This document shows positions 3,450 through 14,446 of a DNA stretch of 23,231 nt, in pieces (positions within the stretch are counted from its first letter, which is position 1; every line of letters starts with the position of its first letter). The notes beneath the pieces are model-generated. The model ran no database searches. It was not told the DNA's origin and worked only from the letters and a program-made list of their open reading frames with translations. Both the position numbers and the translations under genes were made by a program. Origin of the DNA: an uncultured archaeon (GTDB lineage: Archaea; Asgardarchaeota; Jordiarchaeia; Jordiarchaeales; Jordiarchaeaceae); the NCBI GenBank assembly GCA_964510585.1, contig CAZECW010000022.1:1-23231 (forward strand). Direction: 5' to 3'.

Positions 3450-3914
3450 CTATTCTTCTGTGTATGTGCCTATTGACCCCTCAGCCTCCTCCACTGAAAC
3501 CCTTATTTTCATGTTTTTGAGGGGTGACTGTTTTAGCTGTTTATAAATATATTCGGATATTTTTTCCACAGTGGTTGCCTCAATAGGCAAAAGTAATGCG
3601 TCATCCTTGGGGAAGATGTACCTCCTCCTGTTTGCTATAACCTCTATTTCTTTTCCCATCTCCCTGATTTCTACTTCCTTTTCTTTAGTGGGTATCAGTA
3701 TGTGGTGATCCATTTTCTGACAGATATCCCTCGCTACGTTTCTTACATCTAGAAAGTCCACTATCATCTGCTGACTGTTAAGTTTATCGGACTCAATCTC
3801 AATAGTTACCTTATAGTTGTGGCCGTGTATACGCTCACATTTCGGGTGACGAAGGAGGAAATGAGCCGCAGAAAAGTTTAGGTCAGTTCTTTCCACCTTA
3901 AGCTTGTAGACCAT
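3450..3914 (-). CDS. queD: 6-carboxy-5,6,7,8-tetrahydropterin synthase (6-pyruvoyl-tetrahydropterin synthase family)
   Basis: FSAAH, CERIHGHNY (Zn ligands and Cys), IVDF, MDH and TTVE motifs; lies downstream of queE on the same strand. Confidence 0.9.
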   Translation of the reverse strand: MVYKLKVERTDLNFSAAHFLLRHPKCERIHGHNYKVTIEIESDKLNSQQMIVDFLDVRNVARDICQKMDHHILIPTKEKEVEIREMGKEIEVIANRRRYIFPKDDALLLPIEATTVEKISEYIYKQLKQSPLKNMKIRVSVEEAEGSIGTYTEE

Positions 3915-4117: not shown

Positions 4118-5008
4118 TCAGAGTATTCCCAACACTTTATGGGCTTGAATTGATACTGAAATGTCATTTTTATGAAGATACTTTGCCGCGGCTTCAGTGA
4201 ACTGGAACAGTTGTTTTATTGTGGGTTTTTCCCCCACTTCGCCATATGGAGATACAATCTGAATGCATAGGGGGCATCCCAACTTAGCGAGCTCCCTAGC
4301 ATACCATTCAATATTCTCCGATTTTGTTTGGGATGTAACTACAACCTTGGCGAAGGTCTTTGCCTTTGCCTCAACTAAAACCTGTATGGTTTCCAACTCT
4401 CTCTCCACTAGGGCTCTCCAGTCTGAAGCAGCCCCCGCCGTCTCATCTTTAATATCACAGCAGCAGTATTCAAAAAGTTCAGCCACCTTTGAAGCACACC
4501 CAGGTAAAGAACCATTAGTTTCAAGATAGAGAATATAACCTTCTGAGACAAGGTTCTCTGAAACTTCCCTCAGGAAATCCGTTTGAAGTAAAGGCTCCCC
4601 ACCAGTAAATGACACCGAGTGAAGATCCGCAGTTTTCAGTTTTCTCACATAGCTGCAAAGAGTTGCTGGATCTATGGGATTTGCTTGCTCTGCGAATTTT
4701 CCAGTCCCGGGGCTTTCTTCCATTCTAACCTGAGGTGCGTCTGGTTTTTGAGCTCCAGGTGATTTGCGTCTTAGTATGTTCTATAAGATGTCGCACCACC
4801 TGCAGCCCCTAGTTCCAAACTCCCCCATAGCTAGGTTGCAGCCCGCGAATCTAGCGATTCGACGGATGAATAGCTTCTATTCCTCCTATATCTGGCGCTT
4901 TCCATAACACGAGCCGCTGACGCTACCTCCTTCTCCTTTACCTCCCCCTCTCTGGGGGATTTGGTAGGAAGAGAACACCTCAGCGACCCATCCCTTAACC
5001 AAGACCAT
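4118..5008 (-). CDS. queE: 7-carboxy-7-deazaguanine synthase QueE (radical SAM), split by three short introns; join(complement 4961..5008, 4888..4936, 4790..4857, 4118..4762), 269 aa when spliced
   Basis: Exon lengths 48+49+68+645 = 810 nt. Spliced translation begins MVLVKGWVAEVFSSYQGEGGSVSGSCYGKRQIFARFAGCNLAMGEFGTRGCRWCDSPGAQKPDAPQVRMEESPGTGKF and continues with SFTGGEPLLQ, YLETNG and DIK, all QueE motifs. The start is uncertain: ATG 5008, TTG 5002 (5 nt after GAGGTGA) or ATG 5026. Confidence 0.88.
4763..4789 (-). other. Putative BHB intron 3 of queE (27 nt)
   Basis: mRNA CAGGUG-G-UGCG-AC | A-UCUUA-UAGAACAUAC-UAAGA-CGCA-AA | U-CACCUG. Perfect 4-bp central helix UGCG/CGCA, 5-bp intron helix, 6-bp exon-exon helix; contains an in-frame TAG (4781-4783). 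Removal gives W-C-D-S-P. Confidence 0.85.
4858..4887 (-). other. Putative BHB intron 2 of queE (30 nt, phase 1)
   Basis: mRNA AGCG-CC-AGAU-AU | A-GGA-G-GAAUAG-AAG-CUAUUC-A-UCC-GUCG-AA | U-CGCU. The intron helix has 9 bp plus one mismatch; central helix AGAU/GUCG pairs 3 of 4. The unspliced frame has two TAGs. Removal gives R-Q-I-F-A-R-F-A-G-C. Confidence 0.75.
4937..4960 (-). other. Putative BHB intron 1 of queE (24 nt)
   Basis: mRNA UUCC-UACC-AA | A-UCCCCC-AGAGA-GGGGGA-GGUA-AA | GGAG. Perfect central helix UACC/GGUA and 6-bp intron helix. Removal joins the conserved Q|GEG motif. Confidence 0.82.
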
Positions 5009-5042
5009 CACCTCAAAACAGGCCATGTCACATCCTTTTAAA
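5008..5042 (-). promoter_or_regulatory. Candidate TATA box (TTTAAAA, 5042-5036) and SD-like GAGGTGA (5014-5008) for queE
   Basis: The TATA-like element is about 28 nt upstream of ATG 5008, and GAGGTGA is 5 nt upstream of TTG 5002. Sequence resemblance only. Confidence 0.35.
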
Positions 5043-13792: not shown

Positions 13793-14446
13793 TTGGTGAG
13801 AACCACGTCATCCAAAGAAGAGCTATTGAAGAAGATAGCTGATGCTGTCGTAAATCTGAATGTTGAAGAAGCTAAAAAGAATGCAGAAGAGGCATTAAAG
13901 TCAGGAATTTCCCCACTTGAAGCCATAAATGAAGGGTTTGTCAAGGGGCTTCGAAGGGTTGGAGAACTCTTTGAAAATAAGGAGTATTTCCTCGCAGACA
14001 TGATTATGGCTGCTGAAGCCTTTAAGGCAGGTATGGAGGTTTTAACGCCTCACATTAAAAAACATGGAAAGAAGAGGGGTGTAATAGTAATTGGGACGGT
14101 TAAGGACGATATACACGACCTTGGCAAGAATATCGTAACAACCCTACTTGCCTCCGAGGGTTACGAAGTTCACGACCTGGGCATAGACGTCTCCGCGGAA
14201 GAGTTTGTAAAGAAAGCCCAGATAGTTAAAGCGGATATAGTTGGCCTTAGTGCGTTGTTGACGACGACCATGGAGCGCATACCTGAGGTGATCGAAGCCT
14301 TAAAGGAAGCGGGGCTAGATAAAGTTAAAGTAATTGTGGGCGGTAGACCTGTTACCCCAGAGTTCGCTAGGGAGGTTGGTGCAGACGCCTACTGTGAAGA
14401 CGCTATAAAGGCATTAGATGTTGTTAAAAGACTTTTGGAGGGCTAG
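13793..14446 (+). CDS. Second corrinoid methyl-carrier protein, MtaC/MttC family
   Basis: GLRRVGELFENKEYFLADM, DDIHDLGKNIV, GLSALLTTT and VIVGGRP motifs; start TTG 13793 or GTG 13796. Confidence 0.9.
   Translation: MVRTTSSKEELLKKIADAVVNLNVEEAKKNAEEALKSGISPLEAINEGFVKGLRRVGELFENKEYFLADMIMAAEAFKAGMEVLTPHIKKHGKKRGVIVIGTVKDDIHDLGKNIVTTLLASEGYEVHDLGIDVSAEEFVKKAQIVKADIVGLSALLTTTMERIPEVIEALKEAGLDKVKVIVGGRPVTPEFAREVGADAYCEDAIKALDVVKRLLEG

Follow-up and report, generated by a model that had tools for sequence, protein, structure and literature searches.

Three short inserts in a queE-like radical-SAM gene of an uncultured Asgard archaeon (lineage Jordarchaeia/Freyarchaeia) are very likely BHB mini-introns of its pre-mRNA, predicted to be spliced by EndA and RtcB, ancestral to the class and incidental in their lengths. 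The window analyzed is an entire contig of 23,231 nucleotides (23 kb) from a genome of 3.8 Mb, and the sequencing runs of the source organism are hot-spring metagenomes. The gene, identified by a Pfam Radical_SAM match, occupies the minus strand in a single frame from 5026 to 4118 that is interrupted by three TAG codons. QueE models are its best family matches, but at 28–51 bits against cut-offs of 200–300 all of them are sub-threshold, and the gene product stays below the curated cut-off of the QueE equivalog. We therefore use the name queE-like, a putative assignment based on the best-family resemblance, a Cys motif with a long spacer and an adjacent queD-like gene. The latter (6-carboxytetrahydropterin synthase family; 3450 to 3914, minus strand) lies directly downstream and backs the assignment.

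All exons and introns are read on the minus strand. Exon 1 (4961 to 5026; 66 nt) starts with the ATG at 5026, encodes an N-terminus common to relatives and ends in FSSYQ. It is followed by intron 1 (4937 to 4960; 24 nt, phase 0), which contains no in-frame stop in this genome. Exon 2 (4888 to 4936; 49 nt) encodes GEGGSVSGSCYGKRQI plus one base. Intron 2 (4858 to 4887; 30 nt, phase 1) contains two in-frame TAG codons and splits a Phe codon between its first and second bases. Exon 3 (4790 to 4857; 68 nt) reads (F)ARFAGCNLAMGEFGTRGCRWCD, the radical-SAM Cys motif, and intron 3 (4763 to 4789; 27 nt, phase 0) contains one in-frame TAG. Exon 4 (4118 to 4762; 645 nt including the stop) extends from SPGAQ to the C-terminus and carries the Radical_SAM Pfam match. 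The three introns thus fall within 198 nt of one gene. The initial annotation had proposed these boundaries, the lengths of 24, 30 and 27 nt, the spacing of 49 and 68 nt and a shared A start and AA end, and was correct in every one. The placement of junctions 2 and 3 is unambiguous, whereas junction 1 could be shifted by as much as 2 nt with the mRNA unchanged; here the BHB register selects the placement originally given.

Removal of the three inserts yields a 275-residue protein whose alignment with six uninterrupted Asgard homologues, from three other families, has no gaps; all three introns are absent from these homologues. The consensus of these homologues, ...FSS(F/I/L)Q-GEG...G(K/L)RQIF.RF.GC...WCDS..., is matched exactly by the window once the three stretches are taken out. 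With the inserts in place, a BLASTP alignment to an uninterrupted homologue opens a gap at each of the three sites, of 8, 10 (printed as 6+4) and 9 residues, respectively. As for the cbf5 intron, removal restores a full-length conserved protein, and intron-less relatives exist. Within the class, all three inserts are found at identical codons in the genomes of 11 of 11 species, the exon lengths of 49 and 68 nt are invariant, and the spliced frames are open in every genome (268–273 residues as trimmed). All three stop codons (TAG, TAA and TGA) occur in the inserts, varying with the species, and many inserts have frame-shifting lengths, which excludes a changed genetic code and makes decay of the gene very unlikely. 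Independent DNA runs carry the same inserts, so they are not assembly errors. As judged from the compared sequences, the mixed stops, together with compensatory changes in the stems, indicate that the inserts are old BHB introns and not a product of recoding or decay.

The sites were originally described as lying in the most conserved motifs of the protein. This holds for introns 1 and 2, at the 98th and 89th percentiles of local conservation, and less so for intron 3 (73rd percentile), which is placed at the edge of the Cys motif and is conserved solely on the upstream, Cys-motif side. Conserved-motif sites are also found in other host genes: LPD/AHQGYG in rtcB, GTL/DP in cbf5 and CGT/HE in hypD, where the slash marks the intron. 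Since exon sequence forms half of the BHB motif, conserved codons would preserve the motif, and imprecise loss at a conserved site would be lethal, which may be why introns persist there.

Each insert fits the BHB definition of a 2026 preprint (10.64898/2026.10.13.758758), with a helix, a bulge on each strand and an intron hairpin that closes the far side. The central helix is formed by four exon bases upstream of the 5' cut and four intron bases upstream of the 3' cut. In intron 1, TACC of the exon (4966–4963) faces GGTA (4942–4939), flanked by bulges AA/A and AA/G (the slash marks the cut) and a 6-bp inner hairpin. In intron 2, AGAT (4893–4890) faces GTCG (4863–4860), with bulges AT/A and AA/T and a 10-bp inner hairpin. 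Intron 3 pairs TGCG (4795–4792) with CGCA (4768–4765), has bulges AC/A and AA/T and a 5-bp inner stem, and its exon helix reaches 7 bp if the first exon base pairs (G-U). Four of four central pairs form in introns 1 and 3. Intron 2 has three of four in the genus and four of four in the sister family; the helix is weak in the genus because a Gln codon, CAG, stands where the sister family has ACG. Helices flanking the center are present as well: inner hairpins of 5–10 bp with compensatory changes, and an exon helix in introns 1 and 3.

Comparative and single-sequence folding bear on these structures to different degrees. For intron 1, RNAalifold on the 11 genomes recovered the motif, with compensatory changes in 7 of 19 predicted pairs, including all five pairs counted in the inner hairpin. 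On MAFFT alignments of introns 2 and 3 the same program was uninformative, because the intron lengths differ too much between the two families, and a manual register and a named structure were used instead. For intron 2, 92.5% of the cells in the named structure are paired, compared to 27–63% in slid controls. Single-sequence folds form the motif in intron 1 (z = −2.3) and intron 3 (z = −5.8), and the 246-nt region as a whole has z = −5.2; the local fold of intron 2 is not better than shuffles (z = −1.0).

The exon-side helix of introns 1 and 3 had been described as offset by one nucleotide from the textbook form. The offset is real: in the minimum-energy folds of both introns, only the AA is unpaired at the 3' site and the first base of the next exon is paired. 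Bulges on the 5' side measure 3 nt. On the 3' side, the minimum-energy fold leaves introns 1 and 3 a bulge of 2 nt because this first exon base can pair, and a 3-nt bulge would come at the cost of one pair. The central helix of the minimum-energy fold is 4 bp in intron 3 and is drawn as 3 bp, in a degenerate register, in intron 1. By these models, the offset helices of introns 1 and 3 and the weak helix of intron 2 appear to be relaxed forms of the BHB motif, and such forms are reportedly accepted by (alpha-beta)2 enzymes (PMC12397907). Among other host genes, the flanks of which were read by eye, cbf5, leuC and hypD have the textbook exon-helix register, as does rtcB more weakly (2 bp).

Splicing of these introns would proceed as follows. 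Four exon bases and four intron bases would pair into the central helix, an A-starting bulge would come next on each strand and the hairpin would close the far side; a two-subunit EndA of crenarchaeal type would then cut each strand behind the second base of its bulge, and RtcB would join the exons to restore the 275-residue enzyme. The genome encodes the expected enzymes, RtcB (contig C58) and two EndA paralogues. For one paralogue the nearest match is the catalytic subunit in the heterotetramer of Aeropyrum pernix (3P1Z_B, E = 2.8e-45); the second has diverged, and its catalytic His is apparently missing when the sequence is read by eye. Such a two-subunit make-up is associated with a broad substrate range (PMC5829648; PMC12397907). 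Cleavage and ligation in vivo are thus predicted from the genes present and the motifs they would act on. Four sequencing runs contained zero spliced joints; the only two with a metatranscriptomic label contain a relative's unspliced form and are probably DNA.

The three introns begin with A and end with AA, and the initial annotation had offered a splice code as one explanation, to be refuted if other introns lacked the bias. The termini were analyzed in 10 intron families with 94 instances, including class-wide orthologues of seven further families. Discovery was independent of the termini for cbf5, leuC-like, selD-like, alba, C180 and a further gene on contig C18 (from a list of strong inner stems), for rtcB (from start-less reading frames) and for hypD (re-derived); the ahcY intron was taken from a termini-filtered list. 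Directly after the central helix, both strands have an A in 94 of 94 instances. The bias in the termini themselves is present too: the first intron base is A in 82 of 94 and the last two bases are AA in 75 of 94, with a genomic A content of 0.29. Because the register is fixed by the helix and not by the placement of the cut, the sliding of junction 1 leaves this A rule unaffected.

In crystal structures of EndA with BHB RNA the bulge is A-U-A and is cut after the second base; the first bulge base is sandwiched by Arg and Trp or by two Arg, and the third stacks on the catalytic His (PMC12397907). With this cut, the intron starts with base 3 of the 5' bulge and ends with bases 1 and 2 of the 3' bulge. 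The invariant A positions coincide with bulge bases that EndA contacts in these structures (PMC12397907), and we infer that these contacts are the structural reason for the A rule. The explanation by a splice code is supported by both the 94 of 94 instances and this match, and the A...AA termini are best read as an enzyme recognition signature, with no evidence of common descent.

The proposed comparison with tRNA introns gave a similar picture in part. Three of the four tRNA introns resolved have A-first bulges on both strands (AG/A..AG/A, AA/T..AA/T and AA/A..AA/T); the fourth, a tRNA-Gln intron at the canonical position, has GG/A at the 5' bulge and AT/A at the 3' bulge and departs from the rule. 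About nine tRNA genes were found by ARAGORN and the Rfam tRNA model in this genome, which is 96% complete. Nearly all tRNA genes of the lineage carry several introns according to published reports, and the low tRNA count fits this.

Presence and absence of the queE introns were mapped as the initial annotation had suggested: 11 of 11 genomes of the class have all three, and the six homologues of other Asgard families have none. The comparison of sequences indicates that the last ancestor shared by the 11 sampled species already had the three introns, which are older than the divergence of the class into its two families. Because all three predate the class radiation, their distribution gives no order of arrival among them.

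Introns of other genes differ among these genomes. An intron of 30 nt in rtcB (genome G000, contig C58, about 3762–3791, plus strand), inside the LPD/AHQGYG motif, occurs in each of the six species of the genus; the single sister-family genome resolved (G010) lacks it, and three further sister-family genomes have uninterrupted rtcB frames of 494–509 residues. With rtcB itself split by a BHB intron, the message for the ligase would need the ligase to mature. The ahcY-like intron (loci L095–L105), between PTKWE and FDNLWG, is present in the genus and in one genus of the sister family, and precisely absent in four genomes of the other sister-family genus. On the aligned genes, this pattern shows clean loss or parallel gain within the class. 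Intron turnover thus occurs in the class, in the genes rtcB and ahcY. A textbook BHB intron of 27–35 nt is also found in cbf5 (G000, contig C18, minus strand; loci L061–L071), between GHAGTL and DPKVTG, in 11 of 11 genomes.

The initial annotation had further suggested that frame-preserving lengths are a selected feature. The queE introns do not support this: their lengths vary, with differences of 1 nt between close relatives. Across the genus (six species), intron 1 is 24, 25, 26, 26, 21 and 20 nt, intron 2 is 30 nt in all and intron 3 is 27, 27, 27, 27, 30 and 29 nt; in the sister family the lengths are 22, 22, 26, 22 and 23 nt for intron 1, 19, 18, 19, 19 and 23 nt for intron 2, and 15, 16, 17, 17 and 17 nt for intron 3. 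The ranges across species are 20–26, 18–30 and 15–30 nt. When the proposed test for enrichment was extended to the 10 families in the class, multiples of 3 were in excess in the genus (39 of 59 instances), whereas the sister family has 6 of 35. A single value explains the excess: 28 of the 59 genus instances, in 6 of 10 families, are exactly 30 nt. The 30 nt are accounted for by one base, then a hairpin of 23 nt, four bases of the helix and two of the bulge. With this mode, the chance of three multiples of 3 in one gene is about 0.3, compared to 0.04 under uniform lengths, so their occurrence in queE is unremarkable. The multiples of 3 in this genome are incidental, helped by the 30-nt mode of the genus, which may arise from a preference for inner stems about one helical turn long. 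Compared to the cluster at 30 nt in the genus, the sister family has shorter versions of these mRNA introns, ranging from 15 to 35 nt.

An alternative explanation is that multiple-of-3 lengths have been selected as frame-neutral and that the three introns are recent, repeated and independent insertions. The excess in the genus and 8 of 10 verified introns in this genome with multiples of 3 agree with selection of length, as do 5 of 7 families when queE is left out (p about 0.05, binomial, in a census of mRNA introns that is small and partly picked by eye). By our own reading, the frame is kept in 4 of about 13 inferred length changes. A weak preference for such lengths is possible. However, the same introns are 29, 27, 25, 26, 21 or 20 nt in sister species with near-identical flanking protein; the ahcY intron, for example, is 30 nt here and 29 nt in a genome with 100% identical flanking protein, and the rtcB intron is 30 or 29 nt. 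Furthermore, keeping the frame would bring no benefit to most of these introns, which contain stops and interrupt catalytic motifs. Recent insertion is opposed by the ancestral position of all three introns in the class, and the combined explanation is unlikely. Descent of the three introns from one small mobile hairpin, or seeding by excised tRNA introns, would make the shared termini a mark of common origin. The size class is uniform, near 30 nt in the genus, and the inner stems of intron 1 and two tRNA-Val introns all begin with TCC and end with GGA, both in keeping with this origin. Yet a search of the 3.8-Mb genome at up to 4 substitutions found no other copy of the three introns and no donor sequence, and flanking direct repeats are absent. 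As had been stated originally, internal sequence is not shared: the interiors have no significant mutual similarity and resemble each other no more than shuffles do. What is invariant is precisely the set of BHB bases, and the Asgard tRNA intron preprint found no general route of arrival (10.64898/2026.10.13.758758). We consider this origin very unlikely.

Least credible is that the inserts stay in the RNA, either through translational bypass or TAG recoding or because the gene is a decaying pseudogene. It is true that all three in-frame stops in this genome are TAG, and that three introns can be read in frame without a stop: intron 1 of this genome and intron 3 of both G003 and G007 (15 nt in the latter). 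TAA, TGA and frame-shifting lengths at the same sites in relatives argue against both bypass and recoding, and the two other stops rule out TAG recoding. Matching take-off and landing codons for bypass are absent, the exon-intron helices and stems are maintained through compensatory change, and the spliced frame is intact in 11 of 11 species. Excision of the inserts as BHB introns by EndA and RtcB is the reading that we follow below.

Structure by itself is weak evidence for such introns. A perfect BHB look-alike is found in the window at 14140–14167 (plus strand; 28 nt), with a CGTA/TACG helix, bulges AC/A and AA/G and a 5-bp stem; it was rejected as an intron because it sits in an intact reading frame for a corrinoid protein and its removal breaks the frame. 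It is either a chance resemblance or a non-splicing EndA site. Genome-wide scans by structure alone gave noise. A de novo genome-wide census that combined BHB structure with frame restoration found 69 strong motifs where 68 were expected, its signal being swamped by adjacent same-strand genes, and the introns taken as convincing, about ten, were chosen by eye. A search for start-less reading frames found rtcB, a selenocysteine TGA and few introns.

The closest known counterpart is the BHB intron of the cbf5 pre-mRNA in Crenarchaeota (Watanabe, 2002; Yoshinari, 2006; Yokobori, 2009, PMC2738675), in the searched literature the sole case of a spliced coding region (stated explicitly in PMC7714728; PMC2738675). 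Like it, the introns described here are short, lie in coding sequence, adopt a BHB fold and occur in a host with a hetero-oligomeric EndA of broad specificity; the crenarchaeal intron is also gained and lost among relatives, as are introns in this class. In contrast to cbf5, the queE-like gene has three introns in 198 nt, separated by exons of 49 and 68 nt, and introns of 15–30 nt; the gene is another one, the lineage is Asgard, the exon helix is shifted in two of the three introns, and splicing is predicted. Non-canonical tRNA introns have been described in the Asgard Freyarchaeia and Atabeyarchaeia (Valentin-Alvarado, 2024, PMC11291895; 10.64898/2026.10.13.758758). They share with the queE introns the organisms, the size class (median 22–23 nt), the BHB logic, the presumed enzymes and, in three of the four resolved here, A-first bulges. 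Unlike tRNA introns, those in queE have an mRNA host, so that the part of the motif lying in the exon is constrained by the protein it encodes. The preprint mentions neither mRNA nor cbf5 (10.64898/2026.10.13.758758), and the passages on introns available from the 2024 study all concern tRNA introns (PMC11291895). In Haloferax volcanii, HVO_1309 has a single BHB intron in its 5' UTR, shown in vitro (PMC7714728). It resembles the present case as a BHB in an mRNA and an EndA substrate (predicted here), but lies in an untranslated leader, whereas the three predicted introns of queE interrupt coding sequence.

New here are the three-intron gene, the invariant A rule, the 30-nt mode and the finding that frame preservation is not conserved. 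If the preferred reading is true, the closest prokaryotic relatives of eukaryotes can build up introns in protein genes with no spliceosome. More tentatively, and with a probability that we place well short of even, Jordarchaeia/Freyarchaeia might run a genome-wide system of protein-gene introns, with a strict code, a size of about 30 nt in one genus, ongoing gain and loss, genes with several introns and possibly gating. The code in such a system would be a 4-bp helix, followed by A-N/A on the exon side and A-A/N on the intron side. Several hosts are RNA-processing or tRNA-modification genes; splicing capacity may therefore gate the expression of hosts such as rtcB, cbf5, queE and alba, if the system exists. 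The invariant A rule provides a testable EndA recognition code and a better filter for intron finding.

There is also a consequence for annotation. Gene callers split or truncate genes of this kind, so that several genes of these genomes, queE, rtcB and hypD among them, look broken. The opposite is observed in G007 (L007), where intron 3 of queE is 15 nt, in frame and stop-free and reads SKKRK, and the gene looks uninterrupted; intron 3 of G003 (L004), at 27 nt, is likewise without a stop. Such stop-free, in-frame introns escape both gene callers and stop-based screens.

Two further observations concern genome G000. On contig C76, at about 13351 (plus strand), an in-frame TGA in ...VYVCE*GVNIGG... 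looks like a codon for selenocysteine, in an HdrA-like protein, and not like the mark of an intron. On contigs C38, C160 and C21, a repeat of more than 150 nt (...PMRVPT*TPFP*GKGVLTG*W...) precedes start-less coding stretches at no fewer than three loci, and may be a repeat element or a conserved RNA.
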